Below are positions 5,722 through 26,705 of a stretch of 64,000 nucleotides of DNA, piece by piece. Numbering within the stretch: the first letter of the stretch is position 1; each line of letters opens with the position of its first letter. The DNA is from an uncultured Amphritea sp. (GTDB lineage: Bacteria > Pseudomonadota > Gammaproteobacteria > Pseudomonadales > Balneatricaceae). The notes under the pieces were generated by a model, which was not told where the DNA came from, did no database searches, and saw nothing but the letters and a program-made list of their open reading frames with translations. The stretch spans positions 2,074,618 to 2,138,617 of the forward strand of contig CAXXNC010000002.1 in NCBI GenBank assembly GCA_963669425.2. The letters are read 5' to 3'. A program made the position numbers and the translations under genes.

Positions 5722-5831
5722 GCTTTTTTTGTAGCACAATGCTGCCCCAGATCAGATCAATCGCTTACTGAACAGGCGTAGCATAAAGTTATCAGGAAGG
5801 TTCTGTGTAACAAGACAACAGGTATAACACT

Positions 5832-6836
5832 ATGGCTGTATTGGATGACCTGCTTGAAAAGATCGACCAGCAAGAATTCGAACAACTGAGTGCCGAGGTG
5901 CGTGCGGTTATACCCCAGCATCAGCACTGGCTCAACAAGCTAAATATCGCTCTGCTCACAAAAACACCAGTCAGTTCCGAAGACGCCTGGTGCTGCTGCT
6001 CTCACAGCCACTGCCAGTTTGGTCAGTGGATCGAACAGGTACTGAAGAAAAGCGTGTTTCAGCATAATTTCTTCTATCACCTGGATGATCTGCATCGTGA
6101 GTTTCATGGTCTGGCCAATCAACTGATCATCAACCTCAATGAACAGCAACCTTTCGACCTTGCAGTCTATGAGCAGCTTCTGAATATTCAGCACAGTTTC
6201 TCTGCGCAGCTACTCCATCTGCTCGAGTTCAGTGCGGTAAGTAAGCACCAGTTTGATATTACTACCGGCCTGATGAACCGGCGCAGCGTGGATTCTGTAC
6301 TGGCATACGAAAAGTACCGCCTGCACCGAAATCTCCAGTTCCGCTGTTTTATTGCGCTGCTGGATATTGATCACTTCAAACTAATCAACGATCAGTATGG
6401 TCATGATATCGGGGATCAGGTACTGAATCAGATCGCAACAGTGCTGCAATCAATGACCCGGCAGAGCGATGTCATCGCCCGTTATGGTGGCGAGGAATTT
6501 CTGTTTGTGCTGCCGGAGATGAAGCTGGAAGAAGCACTGGAAGGCATCGAACGGGTGCGCCGGCGACTGGCAGAAACTCCTTTGCGAATTAATGATCTTC
6601 AGATCAATGTCACTGCATCCTTTGGTGTCACAGAGTTATGCCGTGAATGCGATGTCGAGAAATCACTGAAGCGAGCCGACGTGGCGCTCTATCAGTCAAA
6701 ACAAGAAGGCCGTAACCGCACTGCTTACATCGATATCAATGAATTTGATGAGCAGGAACGCCAGATCGGCATCGGCCCGATCAATGATGAGTTTACCTAC
6801 CTGATGTCGCAGTACAGCCGTCTGGTAAACGCTTAA
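5832..6836 (+). CDS. Diguanylate cyclase with N-terminal CZB domain (DgcZ-like)
   Basis: HQHWL, CQFGQW and LHREFH CZB motifs; RQSD I-site and GGEEF active site. Confidence 0.88.
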   Translation: MAVLDDLLEKIDQQEFEQLSAEVRAVIPQHQHWLNKLNIALLTKTPVSSEDAWCCCSHSHCQFGQWIEQVLKKSVFQHNFFYHLDDLHREFHGLANQLIINLNEQQPFDLAVYEQLLNIQHSFSAQLLHLLEFSAVSKHQFDITTGLMNRRSVDSVLAYEKYRLHRNLQFRCFIALLDIDHFKLINDQYGHDIGDQVLNQIATVLQSMTRQSDVIARYGGEEFLFVLPEMKLEEALEGIERVRRRLAETPLRINDLQINVTASFGVTELCRECDVEKSLKRADVALYQSKQEGRNRTAYIDINEFDEQERQIGIGPINDEFTYLMSQYSRLVNA

Positions 6837-6845
6837 TTCCAGACT

Positions 6846-7844
6846 TTACAGCTGCAATACGACAAGTTTCAGCGGATGCTGGCCATCCGGAGAGGGAAAG
6901 TCAGTTTCCGGTTCTATCCGCTGAATATCCTGCACCGGCCTACCCGCTTTTGCGGCACAACGCTGTACAACATCCAGCCATTCCTCATAGGGCACACTGG
7001 CAACATTGTTAGCGCATACCAACTGACCGCCAGGCTTTGTCGCCAGCAGTGAGGGCTTGAGAACGCTGGGGTAATCGCGAATCAGATCGACGGTACCAAA
7101 AGGGCTTTTCGCCCAGCGCGGCGGATCAAGAAACACCAGATCAAACTGCTCTTTATCGATCCGGGGAAATGGCTTTGGCTTACGACCCCGGCCGACGCGC
7201 TGACGAATCGGAATACCGGCCAGTTGCTTGGCTGCGGTAAAGAAATCACTCTGGAAGAAACTGATCTGTTCACCGGTCAGGTTATTCAGCTCAGCATTGC
7301 GCTCTCCTACCTGCAAAGACCGCGTAGAAAAATCAACGTTCAGCACCCTGGTGGCTTGCGCAGCTGCGGCAACCACACCAACACCGCAGGTATATGAAAA
7401 CAGGTTCAGTACTGATTTGCCTACGGCATTTTGCTGAATCCAGCGACGTCCGGCGCGCATATCCAGAAACAGCAAAGGATCCTGTCCCTGATGCTTACCC
7501 TTCACCTGATAACTGACGCCCAGTTCATGGCCGACATATTCAGTATCGTCCAGCTGATGCTCGTCACTTCGACGGGAATTACGGGCACTGCGATCATTGT
7601 AAACAGGTTCAAGGTCCGCAGAGAGAAAGCTATTCACCACCGCTGTAATCTCAGACACCTGAGCCTGATCAATCGGACTATGGAACGTCTGAATAAGCAG
7701 TTGTGGGCCGTAACGATCAACCGTAAGACCTGCTGCACCTTCATTGGTACCATGAAACAGGCGGTAACAATCAGTGTATTCAGCAGCCAGTTGCTGCAGT
7801 AAGTCAGTGCGTCGCTCAAGAGCCTGCTGGAGCAGATCGATCAT
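6846..7844 (-). CDS. Class I SAM-dependent methyltransferase (RlmI/RlmK-like)
   Basis: GLTVDRYG, VLNLFSYTCG and FLDPP motifs. Confidence 0.85.
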   Translation of the reverse strand: MIDLLQQALERRTDLLQQLAAEYTDCYRLFHGTNEGAAGLTVDRYGPQLLIQTFHSPIDQAQVSEITAVVNSFLSADLEPVYNDRSARNSRRSDEHQLDDTEYVGHELGVSYQVKGKHQGQDPLLFLDMRAGRRWIQQNAVGKSVLNLFSYTCGVGVVAAAAQATRVLNVDFSTRSLQVGERNAELNNLTGEQISFFQSDFFTAAKQLAGIPIRQRVGRGRKPKPFPRIDKEQFDLVFLDPPRWAKSPFGTVDLIRDYPSVLKPSLLATKPGGQLVCANNVASVPYEEWLDVVQRCAAKAGRPVQDIQRIEPETDFPSPDGQHPLKLVVLQL

Positions 7845-16647: not shown

Positions 16648-17994
16648 CTACTTCTTATCCGCCTCTTCGGCGGCCAGCTTATTAAATTTTGAATGGATGC
16701 GGCGGGTAATCAGTGCCACCGCCACAATGACCAACGGCATAGAGATACCCAGCGCCAGACTCTTATCAATTTCGAGCCCCTGATCATACAGAACGCCGAT
16801 AAAGATCTTCACCAGACCGATGGTGTAATAACTGATGGCCGCCACCGAAAGACCTTCCACGGTATGCTGCATCATCAGCTGAATTTTAGACCGACGATCC
16901 ATGGAGCTGAGCAGCTCCTGATTCTGTTCCTGAATCGACAGCTCAACCTGTGTACGCAGCATATCGCTGACCCGGTCAATTCGTCGTGACAGATCTTCCA
17001 GCCGATCGGCCACTGCACGACAGGTTTTAACCGCAGGGATCATCCGCCGGGTGATAAATTCATTCAGCGTCAGGTGTCCGGAAACCTCATCTTCCCGTAG
17101 CTCACTGAGCCGGGCCAGCACCAGATCCTGATAGGCATTGGTAGCATTAAAACGGAATGTCGAACGGGCCCGGTATGCCTCCACCTGTGCTGCCAACTCT
17201 GTCAGTCGGCCCAGCAGCTCCTGCTCATCTTTACAGCCTTCACCATCAGCAGACAGGATTTGTGTCAGTTCAGCCAGTTGTTGATCCATACTCTGTAACT
17301 GCGGCGAGATCGAGCGGGCCAGTGGCAGACCCAGCAACGTCATCAGACGGTAGGATTCAATCTCAAGCAGTCGCTGTACCAGTCGACCCTGCTGACTGTC
17401 GCTGAGATCGCGGTTATAGATCAGAAACCGACCATAGCCGTCATCATGAATCCTGAACGAGGTCCAGACCTGGGCACAGCCCTGATTCGGCTGGCTGCCC
17501 ACCAAACGCATATCATCGAAGTACTGTTTCACCTCAGGGATACTTGGCTCAGGATTTTCCCGGGCATCTTCGATAGACAGATGGAAGCCGGCTACCACCT
17601 GACCCGCAATCCCTTCCAGCCAACCCGCAGGCAGATGGCTGATACCAGTTTCAGCAAAAGGGTCAGTATGCTCGCCGCCCAGCCAGATAAAGGTGTAGGA
17701 GACAAACTCCATATGCTTTTCACGCCGCACCTGTAACTGGCCGAACTGCTGCTGAAAGCAGGGCTGGTCATATTCCGGAACATCGCCACCGAGCAGTTCG
17801 CAGAGCTGCTGCAGATGTCCAAACTGGCTGCGCTTATCGGCTTCGTCGCACTGAACAGAAAGATGTGAAATTCGCGCCGGACTTGGAATGACCTGGAAAG
17901 GTCTGGAGTGCATCTCTTCATAGAGCGACTCACGCAGCGGATGCATATCGAGCGACGGTGATACAACAGAATCCATTATCTGATCCTTATTCAT
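16648..17994 (-). CDS. DUF3422-like membrane-anchored protein
   Basis: HPLR..L..EMHSRP start, GRLVQRLLEIESYR, LQ..VEGLSVAAISYY and two C-terminal TMs. Confidence 0.85.
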   Translation of the reverse strand: MNKDQIMDSVVSPSLDMHPLRESLYEEMHSRPFQVIPSPARISHLSVQCDEADKRSQFGHLQQLCELLGGDVPEYDQPCFQQQFGQLQVRREKHMEFVSYTFIWLGGEHTDPFAETGISHLPAGWLEGIAGQVVAGFHLSIEDARENPEPSIPEVKQYFDDMRLVGSQPNQGCAQVWTSFRIHDDGYGRFLIYNRDLSDSQQGRLVQRLLEIESYRLMTLLGLPLARSISPQLQSMDQQLAELTQILSADGEGCKDEQELLGRLTELAAQVEAYRARSTFRFNATNAYQDLVLARLSELREDEVSGHLTLNEFITRRMIPAVKTCRAVADRLEDLSRRIDRVSDMLRTQVELSIQEQNQELLSSMDRRSKIQLMMQHTVEGLSVAAISYYTIGLVKIFIGVLYDQGLEIDKSLALGISMPLVIVAVALITRRIHSKFNKLAAEEADKK

Positions 17995-18340
17995 CCAGCG
18001 CAGCCATTAACAAGGGCTGTGGCGACAGATCCACAGCCATCACCTGTGGTGTAACTTCGAACCATGCCAGAAACAGTTCCATGGTCCGAGGCTCTGGCCA
18101 GTGATCACCAAATTCATCCCAGGCCGCCAGCTCATTAGCAAAAATAGCCTCGAACTGCGTCGCCAGCTGTTGCTCAATATCCGCTTCGCTGGCGAACTCT
18201 TCGGTCAGATAGACACTGCCTTCCGCGCGATGCTCCTCAAGCGTCATTGGCTGATTCAGTTCATCCTGCTGTTGGTTAGCCCATTCAGCGAACGGCTCTT
18301 TTGGCAGTACAGCAAATGCGGAACGGTTAATCAGTTTCAT
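17987..18340 (-). CDS. Conserved acidic hypothetical protein
   Basis: MKLINRSAFAVLPKEPFAEWAN...WP.PRT..LF..WF; its stop overlaps the start of the next gene. Confidence 0.75.
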   Translation of the reverse strand: MKLINRSAFAVLPKEPFAEWANQQQDELNQPMTLEEHRAEGSVYLTEEFASEADIEQQLATQFEAIFANELAAWDEFGDHWPEPRTMELFLAWFEVTPQVMAVDLSPQPLLMAALDE

Positions 18341-18438
18341 AGAGGCAGATCCCAACTTCAGATACACTATTCACTTATGTTTAAGGCTTATATTAAGCAT
18401 TCTGGCTTTGCATTATAACGTCCGCTTAAGGGAAGTGA

Positions 18439-19164
18439 ATGAATATCCGCTGTCTGCCACACCTGAATACCCGGGAAGCCTGGCTGGCCTTCTGCCAGCG
18501 TGAGGTACCCTACTGCTTCATTGAGCAGCCGGAGTGTCTGGTAGATTTTCAGACCACCTATCTGATGATTACCCTGCTGGATGGCAATACCCGTGACGGT
18601 AAGCAGGCCACTAAATACAGTCTGGGATCACGCAGCTCGCTGGAACCGGCCTGGCACTTTATCAAAGCCTGTAGTTTCGATCTGGGGCTGATGATCGACG
18701 GCCTGAATCAGGTTAACTTCGACAGTAACGTACGGGATAACTCTTTCCTTAAAGCCCATACCGATCTGACAGTGCGAAAATTCTTTTCCAAAGAGCGTTC
18801 CATCATATCACCGTCACACCTTGGCCGACTGATGCCTCTGGGCCAGGCACCTTCACACTGGGATCTTTACAGCGCCTGCGCACTACTGGCGAATAACCAG
18901 TTTCGGGAGCTGCGTTCAGAGCAACTGGCTCTGCCGGGCAATGATGAGTTTATGGTGGAGTTTAAAGGTATTCCTGCGCCTGAAGTCCAGCCGATGCTGA
19001 ACAGTATGATCTCGTCACCTGAGCGCTGGCAGGCTCTGCCTCATCCCAACGACAGCAGCAGAGTGATCTTAAGACAGGATCAGGCACCTCTGTGCAGTTT
19101 CGAGCCGGTTTACCAGCCCCCTGAACCTAAAATGGCCCAACGGGTTCCCCGCTGGGCCATCTGA
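18439..19164 (+). CDS. Hypothetical protein, convergent with jetC
   Basis: 241-aa ORF after a GGGAAG RBS-like site; no recognised motif. Confidence 0.7.
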   Translation: MNIRCLPHLNTREAWLAFCQREVPYCFIEQPECLVDFQTTYLMITLLDGNTRDGKQATKYSLGSRSSLEPAWHFIKACSFDLGLMIDGLNQVNFDSNVRDNSFLKAHTDLTVRKFFSKERSIISPSHLGRLMPLGQAPSHWDLYSACALLANNQFRELRSEQLALPGNDEFMVEFKGIPAPEVQPMLNSMISSPERWQALPHPNDSSRVILRQDQAPLCSFEPVYQPPEPKMAQRVPRWAI

Positions 19165-19201: not shown

Positions 19202-22200
19202 TCAGGCAGGTAGCAGATCCTCTGCATCCTCAGTGGAAACGCCATTCTCATCTTCGGTCTCTTTCATCAGACGATAAGGGTTATCCGAGTTCAGTAGCGC
19301 TTTACCGTTTGGTGTCGGGAACTCCACATCGATATCCACGATACGGCCATCACGACAGACGTTGATGATGGTATCCATGGTGGTCGCCATCAGTGAGTAC
19401 TTATCGTCCGGTGCGGCGATCAGCGTCTGCAGACCCAGATCACTCATAAAGCCCAGTGAGGTTACAGTGTTCTCCGCATCCAGTTTGTTGAATGCTTCGT
19501 CGAATACCGACAGGCTGATACCGCCCTGAATCACACCATCAGTGGTATCACGCAGACGATAGGTAGCGCCCATTGCTGCCGCGATCGCTACGTAGAACGG
19601 TACCTGGTGCTCACCACCGGAACCGGTCTTGATACGCTGAGTCAGGGTAGTCTTGCGATTACCTTCCAGATCCTTCACCACCAGTTCGAAGTTGTAGAAG
19701 TTACGGTAATCCTGCAGCAGGCTGCTCTCACCTTCATCTTTCAGCACATCGTGGATCTTCGCCAGTGCATCCTGGTGCGGACGATTCTCGTCATACTGCA
19801 GATCGAACAGTGAACCGACATTGGCCTGATCCATCCGGGTGTATGCTTCCACCAGTTCCAGAATGTCTTTCAGTTCCGGGTTCGGCATCATTTCGAAGCT
19901 GTACATCTCGCGATGGAATGGACGGTTCTTCAGGTGTGCATTCAGCTCACGGATCAGCTCTTTGATCTTGTCGATCTGATCTTTCAGGTGCGCAACAAAG
20001 TCAGAACGGAATGAAGTTTCCGCTTCCAGACGGGCACGTTCCGCCTGCTGGGTGTAAGTCGCCAGCTCAGTTTCGCGCAGCTTGAGAATGGTATCTTCAA
20101 CGAATGCCGCCAGCTCTTCATGAGAGGAGCTCTCGTTCACCTTATCCAGATCCTGATGACTCAGACCAGAGCCATGGTGACGGGCTTTATACTGCGCCAC
20201 GCCATCACGGACAATGTTTTTCTTACGCTCTACCAGACCCAGTTCAGACTGAGCCTTCTTAGCAGATTCAAAGATGATGCGATCCAGATCACCGGAACAG
20301 GACTCATCCATATAGTCCCGCTTCTCCTGCGCTGACTGAGCATCGAAGTTGCTGTCTGCTTCGCACTTGGTACGTGCCGCAGCGTGTTCTTCCAATTCCT
20401 GATCCAGCACTTCCAGGGAAGCATTGTCTTTGATCAGGCTGGTACGGGTGGACTGCAGCTTATCCATCAGCTTCTTCTGATTATCCTGCGCCGCTTTCTG
20501 CGCTTCTACCAGATCGGTAATACGCTGCTGAACGCCGGTATCATCCTGATTACGCAGATCCACAATACCCTGACGGTAACCTTCCACTTCGGTCTGCAGC
20601 ATCTCCCGCTGATTGACCAGATCGAAGGTACGCTCAGTCACGCCGGTAAGCGCTGCGGTCATACGAATAAGGTTCTCTTTCAGATTATCCAGCGCTTCGT
20701 GATCTTTATTCAGGGCACTGAATTCCGCCATCATCTGATCAACCTGACGATCCTGCTGTTGCAGCTGATGCTGACGACGGCCACCGCCAGTGCCCATCAT
20801 CGGCGCTTCTTCACGGATCGAGGTGGTGGTACCTTCGGTCTGCAGCATGCAGTCGTAGGTCAGTGCCCGCTCCTGACGGATCAGCTCACTTTCAGTTTCC
20901 ACCGCCATCACACCGCCCAGAGCACGGTTCATATAACCCAGCGCATCATCGCTGCTGCAGTCGATAAACTGCGCCAGCGAGCCTGGCTTGCTGCGGTTAA
21001 TCCATTCATGGGTCTTCGTCGTGTTGACGATCCGGCAACCTTTCAGATGACGGCCTTTACGACGGTACAGGGTAATCGCTTCTTTAACACGATCCTGATC
21101 AACGATCAGCGCCTCACGACGGGCCCCCAGGAAACTCTCAATGGCGATACGCCACTTGTCATCGTTGATATCCACCAGCTCACAGATCGGCGTGGATTCG
21201 ATGCCATAGTCACGCAGCAGCTGCATCAACTCACGGGTATTACGGCGCAGCGGCGCGCGACCCTCTTTCAGTTGTTCAACCGCGCTTTTCTGGTTCTGAA
21301 TCTCGGTGCGTAGTTCGTTCATACGAATCACTGACGCTTCAAAGCGACGGGCGATCTCACGACGAACCTCATCGACAGAACCTTTCAGGCGATCCAGATT
21401 GTTATCCACATCCACCGGCGCCATCGGCCAGGCTTCCGCCATCATATCTTCACCGGAGCGCCACAGCTCGACGGAATCTTTCACTACCGGGATGAAGTTC
21501 TCCGGCAGATACTGCTGATAGTTGGCAAAGCTGACTGCCGAACGCAACAGAGTGTAGACGTGCTGAATCTTCTCTTTCACCACGTTCAGCTCATGCTGCT
21601 TGGCATCGATGGAGTTCTCCAGCGCTTTCACTTTGTGAGCGCTGTCGGTGTTATTCAGTTCGGCACGGGCTTCAGCCAGATCCTGCATCACCTGGTTAAG
21701 GTTATCGCTACTGTTCTCCAGTGCCTGCTGAAGCTCGGTTTCTTTATCCTGGTTTTTCTCCAGTCGCTCTTCCGCTTCCTCTTTTTTCAGGTCTGCCTGC
21801 TCGAAACGGGTCTCATGCACCACCCACTCGTATTCAACCGAGTTCTTGACGTTGCGGTCGATCCCTTTGCATTGCTCCTGAACCTTTTCCAGTTCCTCAA
21901 TGCGGTTAGCAACTTCACGGGTTTTCTGCTCCATCGCCCGGTATTCATCCAGGGATTTACGGAACGCACCGACATGGACAATGTTCTCATCCAGCACGAA
22001 TTCACGGATAAAGCGAGTCGGGCTGTTGATCGGTACAAACTTCAGTGCGTTTTTGAAGTTTTTGACGAATTTCTCGTCATCATTCGGCATCTGTGGATCA
22101 AAGCTAAGCTCTGTGACCAATTCACGGATGTAACGGCCAGCACGCTTCTCCAACTTCATATCCGGGCACTGCTTAAGCAGATTCTCTCGTACTTCCGGCC

Positions 22201-22657
22201 AGGCTTTCGGGATACGACCGCCATCCTGCTTATCGGTAAAGTCTTCCAGGCTTACGGAAAAATCCGGCAGGATAAACCGACCCAGTACTTCCTCCTCTGG
22301 AGAGGACAGGGATGCACTGATCGATACGCCGACACAGCTCTCTTTGCCGGTTTCAGTGTCATAGAAGCTCAACGCCACATAGGTCACAGAATCCTGACGG
22401 GCGTTATCTTTGCTGCCACCGTCATCCATAAAACCCAGACAGTATGTGCGCAGGCTACGCTCACTCTTATCACCGGCACTGGCGTTAAAACTGAGATTCT
22501 TTTTGTTGCCGCCCATCAGGACGGTCTGAATCGCATCCAGCAGGGAGGATTTACCGGAACCGTTCGGGCCGACAATCGCCACATTGCCCTTGATTGGAAT
22601 TTCTACCGCGCCCAGAACATACCAGTTCACCAGCACCATACGATTAAGCTGTTTCAT
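19202..22657 (-). CDS. jetC: SMC-like ATPase, JetC/MksB family
   Basis: 1151 aa; Walker A GPNGSGKS, long coiled coils, GSGGE signature, VFDEAF Walker B and KLD D-loop. Confidence 0.88.
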   Translation of the reverse strand: MKQLNRMVLVNWYVLGAVEIPIKGNVAIVGPNGSGKSSLLDAIQTVLMGGNKKNLSFNASAGDKSERSLRTYCLGFMDDGGSKDNARQDSVTYVALSFYDTETGKESCVGVSISASLSSPEEEVLGRFILPDFSVSLEDFTDKQDGGRIPKAWPEVRENLLKQCPDMKLEKRAGRYIRELVTELSFDPQMPNDDEKFVKNFKNALKFVPINSPTRFIREFVLDENIVHVGAFRKSLDEYRAMEQKTREVANRIEELEKVQEQCKGIDRNVKNSVEYEWVVHETRFEQADLKKEEAEERLEKNQDKETELQQALENSSDNLNQVMQDLAEARAELNNTDSAHKVKALENSIDAKQHELNVVKEKIQHVYTLLRSAVSFANYQQYLPENFIPVVKDSVELWRSGEDMMAEAWPMAPVDVDNNLDRLKGSVDEVRREIARRFEASVIRMNELRTEIQNQKSAVEQLKEGRAPLRRNTRELMQLLRDYGIESTPICELVDINDDKWRIAIESFLGARREALIVDQDRVKEAITLYRRKGRHLKGCRIVNTTKTHEWINRSKPGSLAQFIDCSSDDALGYMNRALGGVMAVETESELIRQERALTYDCMLQTEGTTTSIREEAPMMGTGGGRRQHQLQQQDRQVDQMMAEFSALNKDHEALDNLKENLIRMTAALTGVTERTFDLVNQREMLQTEVEGYRQGIVDLRNQDDTGVQQRITDLVEAQKAAQDNQKKLMDKLQSTRTSLIKDNASLEVLDQELEEHAAARTKCEADSNFDAQSAQEKRDYMDESCSGDLDRIIFESAKKAQSELGLVERKKNIVRDGVAQYKARHHGSGLSHQDLDKVNESSSHEELAAFVEDTILKLRETELATYTQQAERARLEAETSFRSDFVAHLKDQIDKIKELIRELNAHLKNRPFHREMYSFEMMPNPELKDILELVEAYTRMDQANVGSLFDLQYDENRPHQDALAKIHDVLKDEGESSLLQDYRNFYNFELVVKDLEGNRKTTLTQRIKTGSGGEHQVPFYVAIAAAMGATYRLRDTTDGVIQGGISLSVFDEAFNKLDAENTVTSLGFMSDLGLQTLIAAPDDKYSLMATTMDTIINVCRDGRIVDIDVEFPTPNGKALLNSDNPYRLMKETEDENGVSTEDAEDLLPA

Positions 22658-23397
22658 CAGTGGGTTTCCTCAGTGCTGGCGGTTTCAGATGCAATTTCCG
22701 GTTCGGTCTGATCGGTTTCGTCAGACTCAGTAGCGTCAGATGAAGGCACCTCTTCAGCCTCCTCTTCCTCTTCCACCACAACCTTGGCAGGTTCTTCCTG
22801 CGGATCATCCTCTTCACGCTCTTCACACAGCGCTTCCAGCTGACCGATAAAGTCCTCAACCACCACCTGACGGATGGTTGGATTAATGGTCAGAGGAATG
22901 TTCTTCGGATCAGTCTCGTGGGGCTTACCACGCTCGATCACACCGTGCCGGGAAAACAGCGCCAGAATCTCTTTCAGACGGGTCTCGTTCGGAATTTCCC
23001 GGCCGGTCAGGTTTTCATAGAGCGTCAGCAGCTCATCGGAGGTGATATAAGCACGACCCGCTTCTACTTCGAACGACTCAAGCTTCTGCTCATATTGCTG
23101 ACGCAGGCAGAGCAGGAACAGTGACTCATCCAGTTTAAGGCGCATAAAGCGCTCTTCGCCTTTCGGCAGGATACCCAGATAGGCCTCATCCGGCTGGTAA
23201 ATCAACGACCAGCCGATCGCCGCAAACAGGTTGGTGAAGTAGTCCACGTGAGATGCCACCAGAAAGTAGCTGTCACGGTGGCCGGAACGTTCAGAATAGA
23301 GGAACTGGTGCACCAGCAACATATTGGCGGCGTGAACAAAGTCCTCCTCCTGGTACTGATCACTCCGGCTGATAATTTTCTGCAAATCGCCCAGCAT
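22657..23397 (-). CDS. jetB: JetB/MksE-like kite subunit (DUF4194-like) with acidic tail
   Basis: Winged-helix-like pattern ([26 protein letters not shown]). ATG 23397 overlaps the jetA stop (TAATG) and its stop overlaps the jetC start (TGATG). Confidence 0.78.
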
Positions 23398-24803
23398 TAT
23401 GCTTTCCTCTGGATACTGAAGTCGCGACATTCAACCATGTCGGCGACGTTGACATATTGATCTTCAAACGTAATTTCGTACTTACTGGCCGTGCCCCGGC
23501 CCTTCTTGCCCAGTGAGCGCATATGACGCAGGTAACTGAAGCAGATGTAATCTTCGATGCACTCAATGGTGAAGTCCCGGGCGCAGATCTTGTCCTTATC
23601 TAACAGATGACGCTCGACATAGAGCTCAATCTTCTCCGGTTTCACCTCACGGCGGGCTTTATACTCTTTAAACAGCTGACGCAGTTCGAGTACCCGCGGA
23701 TCGATCTCCTGCTGACGGATCACCCGAGGCTTGGTCTCAACCCGACGACGTACCGGTGCACGGACACTGCCCGGTGCAATAAAGGCCACTGAATCCAGCG
23801 TATCGATATGCGGAATCGAGCGACTATCGAGTTTCGATACATCCGAAATAACCCGCGACAGTCGTGCGCTCATACCTGGTGTGGTTTTATCCATGTAACG
23901 AACGGTATCTGCTACACGTTTTTCCAGGCGATAACGGAAATCATCGATGGTCGCCAGACGCTGATCCACCGAATCGAAGATACGGATAATCCGGTTGATA
24001 TGCTGATGCACCATCCCTTCAGCATCGGCGTAGCTGACTTCGAACTGCTCCTGATAGTGCTTGGACAGCTGCTCCAGTTTCAGCGGATCAAACTGCAGAT
24101 CGCGCAGCATCGACAATATCTGACGGCGGAACCGGAACGGGTTATTTTTGGTCTTCAGCGTCTTATAGTCAGACACCAGAATATGAGCAACGAAGCGATC
24201 AAAGAAGCTGCGGACAATCTCCTGTGGATTGTTGGTCGCAGCCAGACTGATCTTCAGCTCACGCAGGCCCAGCATCATATCGGTCAGATGGGCACTGAAA
24301 TCCGCTGCGGTCTGAGCCGCTTCCTGCAGGGTGATACCCCGGCCAGCCGGATCTTTAACAGCGGCTTCCAGGGAGCTCAGTACGTTAAGTACCGCGCCAC
24401 CGTAGCTGCGTTTTTCCAATTCATTGATTGATACCAGCGTACGCAACAAGTAGCTGATGGCCGGCGACAGCAGCACAAAGGTACGGTAAATCCGCTGTTC
24501 CTCTTCGAGCCAGCCTGTGGCGACCAGTCGACGGTAGATACGACTGGTATATTCTGCGGTGGAACGGGGCAGTTCCTGCCCTTCTGCTTCTTCATCGCCC
24601 TCTTCCGGTTCCCAGCGGCGTACACCCAACCGCACGACCGTATCTTCTATAGAAGAACGGATCAGGTCTTTTGGAACAAATGGATCAACCAGATCTTCAT
24701 CGAAGAACTGATTTGAAAGATCCAGCAGAACGGCCTCGTATATATGACGGTTCTGGCCGGAAAAAGGGATAAAAATATCTTCAGGAAGCTTATTAAAAAG
24801 CAT
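23397..24803 (-). CDS. jetA: JetA/MksF-like kleisin (resembles the DUF5716 type)
   Basis: 468 aa, MLF.KLPE..F.PFSG.NR.IY N-terminus; first gene of the coupled three-gene operon that ends in the SMC gene. Confidence 0.72.
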
Positions 24804-25165
24804 CTGTTATCTGCTCTCCGGGAGCACTGTTTCCAGCGCAAAAAGAATGATGAACTGGGGATGATAACGGAAATAACCACACTGACCAAGTCGGAAAATT
24901 TCATCCACACAAAGCGTTTAAGACAGCAACCGGAATTGATCTGAAAAGCCCTGTGATATCCATACCTGTCAACCTGTTTATGTACCTTTTTGTTAACCAT
25001 GAATCATCGGCATAACCAACATTTAACTTATAAGCTGGTGATATTCCGGGACTAATAGACTGATTATTACTCGCCATCGGCCCGAGTTAAGCGCCAACGT
25101 TCCAAGCCTTTGATTGAACAGGATTTAACCACTTTAAAAAACAATGATTTTTTTCTCTTTTCTGC

Positions 25166-26095: not shown

Positions 26096-26705
26096 AAAAT
26101 CCACCTTCTAAAGAAGGTGGCTTTGATGAAGCCCCCTCGAAGGGGGCTGACTTCTATAGCAGGTTCAGTTGGCTTCGTTCCATCTCTTTTTCAACCTTTT
26201 CCTGATGTCTTACATAACGCCTGATTATTTCCTCATTGATTCCAACCGAATCAACAAAATACCCCCTCCACCAAAAGTGATTTCCCCACAACTTGTTCTT
26301 TCTCAAATAGGGATATTTACTGAATAGCTTCAGAGCTATCTTGCCCTTGAGTGCACCAATCAGCTTAGATATTGCCAACTTAGGCGGTATCTTTACCACC
26401 AGATGCACATGATCTATTTGGACATTCAGTTCTAAAACTGTACAGCCTAGCTGCGCACAATATACATGGATACTTCGGTAAACATCCCTACCCACCTTAT
26501 TCTTCAGTATCCGAAATCGATATTTCGGCGTCCAGACTATGTGATATTGACAGCGCCAGTAGACATGCGATGCTTGCTCATACTTACTCATGTTAGTTTC
26601 CTCACGACTTCGCTAAAAATCGCTGCGGCTTCTAACATGGGTAGGTATTCGGGCAAAGCCCAAATTGCTGATAACCACCTACTGAAGTAGGTGGTTTAGG
26701 GCTGA
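26096..26705 (-). mobile_element. IS200/IS605 family element (tnpA only, IS200-like); ends approximate
   Basis: Subterminal hairpins AACCACCTACTGAAGTAGGTGGTT (26673-26696), CCACCTTCTAAAGAAGGTGG (26101-26120) and AGCCCCCTCGAAGGGGGCT (26130-26148) flank tnpA; AT-richer than its neighbours. Confidence 0.85.
26154..26591 (-). CDS. tnpA: IS200-type Y1 (HUH) transposase
   Basis: YHIVWTPKYR, DHVHL (HUH), LWGNHFW.RGYFVDSVG and IRRYV..Q (catalytic Tyr). Confidence 0.95.
   Translation of the reverse strand: MSKYEQASHVYWRCQYHIVWTPKYRFRILKNKVGRDVYRSIHVYCAQLGCTVLELNVQIDHVHLVVKIPPKLAISKLIGALKGKIALKLFSKYPYLRKNKLWGNHFWWRGYFVDSVGINEEIIRRYVRHQEKVEKEMERSQLNLL

Follow-up and report, generated by a model that had tools for sequence, protein, structure and literature searches.

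What does a Wadjet-type operon do in a genome that encodes no Wadjet nuclease? The question arises from three genes, jetA, jetB and jetC, in a stretch of 64,000 nucleotides from an uncultured Amphritea sp. (GenBank assembly GCA_963669425.2, contig CAXXNC010000002.1), hereafter called the window. An initial annotation, made from the sequence alone, had recognised a Wadjet/MksBEF-type operon lacking jetD and had left three explanations side by side, namely a nuclease-less housekeeping condensin, a system that uses a JetD encoded elsewhere, or one with a different effector. The analysis reported here strongly supports the first of them and speaks against the other two. It is probable that this nuclease-free type I JetABC is a domesticated Wadjet system, that it is the sole bacterial condensin of its host and that it has replaced Smc-ScpAB, as MukBEF did in enterobacteria.

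Most bacteria have one condensin, "either Smc-ScpAB or MukBEF", and Pseudomonas has been considered remarkable for possessing two (Lioy et al., bioRxiv 10.1101/2020.05.18.101659). It is a current hypothesis in the field that loss of the nuclease can convert a Wadjet system into a chromosome segregation module (PMC10586767; bioRxiv 10.1101/2025.03.10.642339). In the literature we found no description of a recognisable type I JetABC as the only condensin, although Petrushenko et al. (2011), who first surveyed MksBEF, may have mentioned one.

The operon is predicted to encode type I JetA, JetB and JetC

The three genes lie on the minus strand in the order jetA (23397..24803, 468 amino acids), jetB (22657..23397, 246 amino acids) and jetC (19202..22657, 1151 amino acids), and successive genes overlap by one base. 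The start of jetB is the ATG within TAATG, which overlaps the jetA stop codon, and not the start of a longer open reading frame (ORF) of 257 amino acids; likewise, the start codon of jetC overlaps the jetB stop codon in TGATG. JetC, an SMC-like ABC ATPase, carries a Walker A motif (GPNGSGKS, residues 30–37, 22547..22570), an ABC signature (GSGGE, residues 1012–1016, 19610..19624) and a Walker B motif (VFDEAF, residues 1051–1056, 19490..19507) with the catalytic E1054. The coordinates of all three motifs were verified, and the gene coupling and intact ATPase motifs read from the sequence at the outset were found as described.

Profile searches place all three products, over their full lengths, among the predicted members of the type I Wadjet families. 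JetA, the kleisin subunit, matches Pfam PF18982 (JetA, formerly DUF5716; E=2e-96, residues 37–467) and the PADLOC model PDLC00443 for JetA1 (E=2e-215, 714 bits, residues 1–467). The KITE subunit JetB, a MukE-like protein, matches Pfam DUF4194 (E=3.9e-21) and PADLOC PDLC00489 for JetB1 (E=2e-104, 346 bits), and its score with Pfam MksE (23.4 bits) stays under the cut-off of 27. JetC reaches 1732 bits with PADLOC PDLC00503 for JetC1 (residues 1–1137). In addition, the Pfam head halves AAA_29 and SbcC_Walker_B match, the SMC_hinge match is borderline, and the score against the bacterial Smc model TIGR02168 (NCBIfam) is 70.8 bits, far under its cut-off of 567. The DUF5716 region of JetA had been taken for a type III-like kleisin; this assignment has to be revised, because PADLOC gives type I for all three proteins (JetA1, JetB1, JetC1).

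Solved JetABC structures were reached only through a JetB profile and a fold search with JetA. The profile, built from 13 JetB sequences, matched the solved JetB of E. coli GF4-3 (8as8_C, E=1.5e-15) and of P. aeruginosa PA14 (8dk1_E, E=3e-12). When single sequences were searched against the PDB, JetA and JetB gave no solved match and JetC gave only a short N-terminal match to the PA14 chain 8dk1_C; a JetA profile did not match any PDB entry either. The AlphaFold2 (AF2) model of JetA has a low predicted local distance difference test score (pLDDT 65) and comprises a helical N-terminal part, a disordered linker (residues 330–365) and a C-terminal winged-helix domain. Foldseek ranks kleisins first among its matches: JetA 8q72_E (E=9.9e-4), MukF 7nz2, JetA 9qxt_E and JetA 8dk2_A. 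Taken together, profiles and fold search identify the two upstream genes as a kleisin and a KITE gene, as the initial annotation had presupposed.

JetD is missing from the locus, the genome and the loci of relatives

The assembly, which comprises 4.39 Mb in 2 contigs and is 96.7% complete, gave no match in whole-genome scans with the Pfam profiles JetD_C and DUF3322, both of which matched in the C. glutamicum genome used as a control. Translated searches (tblastn) with six JetD proteins from relatives and a hidden Markov model (HMM) built from them, covering all ORFs of at least 60 amino acids, yielded no E value better than 0.1. A genome scan with DUF2399 yielded no match either, but this search had no positive control and so counts for little. 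Within the window, no JetD-type ORF lies on either side of jetABC. On the strength of the JetD_C and DUF3322 scans, the tblastn searches and the custom HMM, a JetD encoded elsewhere in the genome was rejected.

For the relatives, loci were surveyed in one genome per species, which gave 78 loci with a full-length JetC. At none of these orthologous loci does a JetD-sized ORF follow jetC on the same strand. Where the layout is atypical, the genes after jetC encode HD-GYP/GGDEF, TetR, histidine kinase and response regulator, methyltransferase or DUF6602 proteins. A recent deletion of jetD, which relatives retaining the gene at this site would have revealed, was therefore rejected as well.

JetD_C matches occur in only 9 of 151 family genomes. 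Four JetD loci were inspected (three fetched, one inferred from coordinates), and all are in or beside separate Wadjet operons; the three fetched loci are complete four-gene operons. The JetC proteins of these operons share at most 26% identity with the core JetC (G044) or are barely alignable with it (G098, G023), and the operons are remote from the core locus, as in G098, where the Wadjet operon is at 3.43 Mb and the core locus at 2.76 Mb. As JetD at the inspected loci belongs to such separate and divergent operons, the core JetABC and mobile Wadjet systems coexist as distinct entities, and a JetD supplied from elsewhere is rejected for the family too.

A candidate for a different effector is orf241 (18439–19164, plus strand), a convergent ORF of 241 amino acids that is kept at its position in most of the family (37–72% identity). 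It was rejected, since it has no Pfam or PADLOC match, its AF2 model (pLDDT 81) finds no PDB fold match at E<=0.001 and no nuclease-like fold, and it is absent at the Marinomonas loci described below. The predicted structure may represent a new fold. Except for the housekeeping gene bolA, no gene is co-conserved with jetABC in both lineages, and the idea of another effector thus finds no support.

jetABC is a core operon of the family Nitrincolaceae

An even sample of the window's family, comprising 151 genomes from 16 genera, contains a full-length JetC orthologue (62–90% identity) in 134 genomes and 14 genera, almost always in a single copy. Identity to the JetC of the window amounts to 88–90% within Amphritea, 84–85% in Aliamphritea and a related metagenome-assembled genome, and 71–77% in Pontibacterium, Neptuniibacter, Neptunomonas, Nitrincola and several Marinobacterium lineages. 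The order jetA, jetB, jetC, convergent orf241, orf126, DUF3422, bolA and ABC transporter is kept at most loci, across genera. In a maximum-likelihood tree of JetC the family clade has a support of 100/99; the Pontibacterium, Neptuniibacter, Neptunomonas and Nitrincola clades are fully supported, Amphritea is supported with 85/91, and Marinobacterium does not form one clade.

The mean identity of JetC (77%) exceeds that of the neighbouring ABC transporter (73%), DUF3422 (65%), BolA (63%) and orf241 (51%) proteins, and its divergence tracks that of the neighbours (Spearman rho 0.41–0.94). In eight species pairs, the ratio of nonsynonymous to synonymous substitution rates (dN/dS) of jetA, jetB and jetC ranges from 0.006 to 0.06, and in nearly every pair the dN of jetABC is under that of the flanking genes. 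Walker A is invariant in the family clade and reads GPTGSGKS in Marinomonas; the GSGGE signature and FDEAF do not vary within the core clade or within Marinomonas. No close relative was found on a plasmid, the best plasmid match having at most 31% identity. The patchy, horizontally spread distribution typical of defence systems was not seen either, as is evident from the presence in 134 of 151 genomes, the synteny and a tree whose groups correspond to the genera. We conclude that jetABC is a housekeeping operon in the core genome of the Nitrincolaceae, passed on vertically, and not a mobile defence island.

One locus departs from this pattern of intact genes. In Aliamphritea spongicola JCM 16668 (AP025283.1, L071 7835–13445) jetA is broken up into two reading frames and jetC into three, with every piece 79–87% identical to the proteins of the window. 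Either the assembly contains indel errors here or the only condensin has very recently become a pseudogene.

Smc-ScpA and the core JetABC are mutually exclusive in distribution

In the genome that contains the window, tblastn with the Smc of a relative found nothing (best E=0.012). Only two of its ORFs of more than 700 amino acids have an N-terminal Walker A, namely JetC and a UvrA-sized ORF of 940 amino acids, and JetC is the only one above 1000 amino acids. The N-terminal domain of MukB (PF04310) has no match in this genome or in the family members. The check for Smc-ScpAB and MukBEF suggested in the initial annotation thus returned neither Smc, ScpA nor MukB, and JetABC is the only SMC-kleisin complex that the genome is predicted to encode.

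Across the family, Smc (TIGR02168) occurs in 13 of the 151 genomes, all of them from a single genus (g2), and ScpA in 11 genomes, again exclusively of g2, apart from a stop-riddled remnant in G009. By its protein names, g2 is probably Candidatus Njordibacter/ASP10-02a. The genus that keeps Smc-ScpA is exactly the genus without JetC. An empty jetABC site in g2 was sought through the DUF3422 neighbour; that gene is absent there, so no comparison was possible.

At the level of the order (401 genomes), 366 genomes and 147 of the 158 genera possess Smc, which is missing from all 11 JetABC-bearing family members in this sample. In contingency tests of Smc against JetABC the values were extreme, with p=1e-15 in the family and p=2e-30 in the order. 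A true MukB (E about 1e-55, encoded by ORFs of about 1471–1497 amino acids) was found only in one unrelated family of the order, alongside Smc. This combination of MukB (PF04310) and Smc, in family f12 (G161, G262, G300, G367, G453; genomes of 4.5–7.4 Mb), is unusual. Since neither Smc nor MukB is encoded, and ScpA is absent as well in the window's family, JetABC is most likely the sole condensin.

The stop-riddled ScpA remnant belongs to G009 (genus g10, 2.3 Mb), which has neither JetC nor Smc; the fragment (C1:314739–315005) contains four TAA stops. G009 may represent a lineage without any SMC complex or one with an unusual genetic code.

A sister lineage in Marinomonas and the origin of the operon

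JetC with 40–42% identity was found in all 13 sampled genomes of a second lineage (f22/g37), whose protein names are those of Marinomonas and Maribrevibacterium. In a collection of 5.8 billion proteins, nothing lies between the Marinomonas clade (72–93% mutual identity) and the Nitrincolaceae clade (41%). The Marinomonas loci contain CbiX, jetA (463 amino acids), jetB (215 amino acids), jetC (1138 amino acids), bolA and a response-regulator PP2C phosphatase, and neither JetD nor orf241 was found at them. Their JetABC proteins have the same best PADLOC models as those of the window. Smc is missing from every genome of this lineage among those listed, and ScpA was tested in the window's family only.

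The gene bolA is the neighbour of jetABC common to all 13 sampled Marinomonas genomes and the window's family, and for three more Marinomonas neighbours the best homologue in the window's genome shares the contig with jetABC, at a distance of 85–115 kb. The shared bolA and the nearby homologues favour an orthologous position of the two loci. In a FastTree phylogeny the Nitrincolaceae and Marinomonas clades join, nested among JetD-linked type I JetC sequences. Elsewhere in the order, distant JetC sequences (24–29% identity) occur sporadically, and all genomes that have them keep Smc. At four of the five such loci inspected, JetD lies directly 3′ of jetC. A JetD-less jetABC followed by epmC is found in G158, from another family of the order (locus L092 5775–11951; JetC 28% identity), which keeps Smc. 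This locus looks like the coexistence state known from Pseudomonas and may represent an intermediate stage of domestication.

The gene jetD was lost before the family diversified, and probably even before it split from Marinomonas. We lean towards a history in which the nuclease was lost and Smc-ScpAB was then displaced, probably in the common ancestor of Marinomonas and most Nitrincolaceae and after a period of coexistence, with the reverse choice in g2; it would amount to a second takeover of the MukBEF kind. According to this scenario, which is the simplest one, a type I Wadjet anti-plasmid system would have lost JetD long ago, the remaining JetABC would have coexisted with Smc-ScpAB for a time, and most descendants would have lost Smc-ScpAB, the g2 lineage losing JetABC instead. 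Alternatively, the operon, already free of the nuclease, may have passed from the ancestor of one family to that of the other, and Smc may then have been lost twice independently. On either view JetABC would now be the only SMC-kleisin machine of these cells.

Comparison with known SMC complexes

Type I Wadjet systems (JetABCD, equivalent to MksBEFG and EptABCD; E. coli GF4-3, P. aeruginosa PA14, C. glutamicum) share with jetABC of the window the gene order kleisin, KITE and SMC, the same protein families (PF18982, DUF4194, JetC1) and translationally coupled genes. They differ in having the JetD Toprim nuclease (DUF3322 and DUF2220), which is missing from the entire genome studied here, so that plasmid cleavage is not expected. 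Moreover, type I Wadjet is patchy or island-borne, whereas the operon described here is core, vertical and syntenic, and its JetC shares no more than about 28% identity with the JetD-linked JetC proteins examined.

A parallel in gene content is MksBEF of P. aeruginosa (PA4684–4686), which likewise consists of three genes without MksG/JetD and is fixed in its lineage. Current opinion derives it from Wadjet by nuclease loss and assigns it a role on the chromosome (PMC10586767; Lioy et al. 2020, bioRxiv 10.1101/2020.05.18.101659). However, Pseudomonas keeps Smc-ScpAB, with MksBEF in a secondary or back-up position, whereas in the lineages considered here Smc and, in the window's family, ScpA are gone. 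Outside these lineages, no family of the order had a JetC match of more than 29% identity. From these identities and the low MksE score of JetB, jetABC may form a subfamily different from MksBEF, and its nuclease loss would then have been an independent one.

MukBEF of the Enterobacterales and their relatives is likewise built of a kleisin, a KITE and an SMC-like subunit and is the sole known precedent, in a gammaproteobacterial lineage, for a Muk/Wadjet-like complex that replaced Smc-ScpAB as the only condensin. In contrast to MukB (about 1470–1490 amino acids), JetC has 1151 amino acids, lacks the MukB N-terminal domain and still scores as Wadjet type I; the MukBEF trait of being the only SMC complex, with Smc-ScpAB absent, fits jetABC by analogy only. 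Smc-ScpAB itself is not homologous to JetABC at the family level, its kleisin and KITE belonging to different families too, and the two are distributed in a mutually exclusive manner. Nevertheless, they presumably share a cellular role, the compaction and segregation of the chromosome by loop extrusion.

By homology, JetABC would be an ATP-driven loop extruder, a kleisin-bridged dimer of JetC dimers. It would compact the chromosome and help its segregation, the role that MukBEF has taken in enterobacteria. We infer that loop extrusion takes place on the chromosome, that JetABC functionally replaces Smc-ScpAB and that plasmid cleavage has been lost.

Objections and alternative roles

Several points weigh against a role of JetABC as the sole condensin. 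The anticorrelation with Smc rests on perhaps two or three evolutionary events, which makes the genomes counted not statistically independent, and the absence of Smc from Marinomonas is based on one kind of genome search alone. Four family genomes (G009, G072, G097, G106), mostly small or incomplete, have neither JetC nor Smc, so the lack of both complexes may be viable. Some bacteria do tolerate the loss of all condensins, and hence "sole" does not imply "essential". A type I JetABC is not automatically chromosomal, as MksBEFG of C. glutamicum reportedly has no role in chromosome organisation, and MksBEF of P. aeruginosa is merely a back-up. Finally, ParB and three canonical parS sites are kept, even though their usual client Smc is gone. 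The parS sites lie within 9 kb (C1:1003207–1012098), two of them being perfect TGTTTCACGTGAAACA, and a ParB-like ORF is located about 30 kb away (C1:1041911–1042792). As ParB and parS remain without Smc, ParABS presumably segregates the origin without help from the lost Smc.

A first alternative is that JetABC still acts against plasmids or other mobile genetic elements without JetD, either through an unrecognised effector encoded elsewhere or by silencing or sequestering small circular DNA in the way in which Smc5/6 treats the DNA of viruses. JetA, JetB and JetC are all genuine members of type I Wadjet, the total-extrusion model puts the recognition of DNA shape in JetABC and not in JetD (PMC10586767), and the conserved orf241, which has no known fold, converges on jetC throughout the family. 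We nonetheless regard such a defence role as unlikely. The operon is core, single-copy and syntenic, is under selection at the level of housekeeping genes and has no defence-island context; no candidate effector is common to both lineages, with orf241 missing at the Marinomonas loci. Beyond that, some family members hold a complete Wadjet in addition, which would be redundant, and a pure defence role leaves the mutual exclusion with Smc-ScpA unexplained.

A second alternative combines both roles, JetABC being the main chromosomal loop extruder and at the same time limiting small plasmids without a nuclease. All evidence for a sole condensin applies equally to such a dual function, and Liu et al. 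have suggested that JetABCD may aid chromosome organisation while scanning DNA (bioRxiv 10.1101/2022.10.04.510915). The sequence data are silent on plasmid activity, and computation cannot separate a dual function from that of a sole condensin; we judge it slightly less probable still than a defence role. By contrast, a recently decayed Wadjet, with jetD newly deleted or located elsewhere and jetABC a drifting remnant, can practically be dismissed, because it has the absence of jetD at the locus as its sole support, while no jetD is found at the orthologous loci of at least 7 genera or in the genome, dN/dS is 0.006–0.06, the catalytic motifs are invariant and the loss is older than the divergence of the family.

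Tail of JetB, upstream region and neighbouring genes

JetB ends in an acidic low-complexity tail (residues 196–246; 22660..22812, minus strand; translation verified), whose last codons overlap the ribosome-binding site of jetC. The tail is a feature of the clade, being acidic in all orthologues and varying in length from 14 to 191 amino acids. In some loci (e.g. L050, L060, L044, L045, L015) it consists of short tandem repeats such as STESTE..., DADADA... or TAETAE..., a pattern suggestive of a disordered acidic segment that evolves rapidly through slippage. The IFDR motif by which JetB contacts JetD (PMC10586767) is not evident in the core clade, nor in the JetD-linked JetB sequences at hand.

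Upstream, 412 bp separate jetA from a divergent cluster of five tRNA genes (two Asn, three Pro), and downstream, 37 bp lie between jetC and the convergent orf241, which has no family match. These flanks are as initially described, namely about 400 bp and divergent tRNAs on one side and an unknown convergent gene on the other. The statement that neither side carries a JetD-type ORF also stands, and a small correction concerns a gene of an IS200-family transposase (26154..26591, minus strand) beyond the tRNA cluster. The G+C content across the jetABC region is unremarkable.

A block with a TGGTCA hexamer, 16 nt of spacing and a TATCAT hexamer (24861..24888, minus strand), about 58 nt 5′ of the jetA ATG, is a plausible candidate for a sigma-70-type promoter of the operon, as judged from consensus and conservation. 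It is one of two promoter-like sites on that strand of the intergenic region, and the block CTTGGTCAGTGTGGTTATTTCCGTTATCATC is the sole nearly invariant upstream stretch among six Amphritea species. The transposase gene is absent from the loci of relatives and is not part of the jetABC system. Other Amphritea species have a gene of 576 amino acids between the tRNA cluster and jetA (L049/L013/L006, about 5800–7640), which is missing in this genome. With the transposase gene found only here and the 576-amino acid gene missing, the upstream flank has evidently been remodelled and the promoter block kept.

On the other side of the operon, many genera have an acidic protein of about 118–126 amino acids with no family match (17987–18367, minus strand, in the window) located between orf241 and the gene for DUF3422, although a number of Marinobacterium and Nitrincola loci lack it. 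The Nitrincola loci also have an insertion between jetC and orf241, a gene of about 890 amino acids (L026 12700–15354, L075 13441–16125, L046 13443–16136, L028, L056). The one copy scanned (L026) encodes a protein with periplasmic-binding, GAF, HD-GYP and GGDEF domains.

Implications

Programs that annotate defence systems will call these housekeeping genes a partial Wadjet, a label that should be treated with caution; NCBI already names some of the proteins "chromosome segregation protein SMC".

As to the origin of MukBEF and MksBEF, it is currently hypothesised that Wadjet defence motors were domesticated to serve genome maintenance, and that loss of the nuclease "locks" them in their new role (PMC10586767; bioRxiv 10.1101/2025.03.10.642339). 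MukBEF, until now the only known replacement that serves as sole condensin, is too diverged to show the route, and the only nuclease-less Mks studied, that of Pseudomonas, coexists with Smc. In the present case a whole family of culturable marine gammaproteobacteria, together with Marinomonas, has a type I JetABC and lacks JetD, Smc and MukBEF. If our interpretation is true, these bacteria represent a second takeover of the MukBEF kind, in which the proteins are still recognisably Wadjet and the hosts can be cultured.

The lineages with JetABC only, the genus g2 with its reciprocal choice and the locus L092 form a natural series for testing a Wadjet origin of MukBEF-type condensins. This series bears on whether the Wadjet core is sufficient for organising a chromosome and segregating it, on how ParABS works without Smc, and on the changes that accompany domestication, such as the acidic tail of JetB and the loss of the JetD interface.

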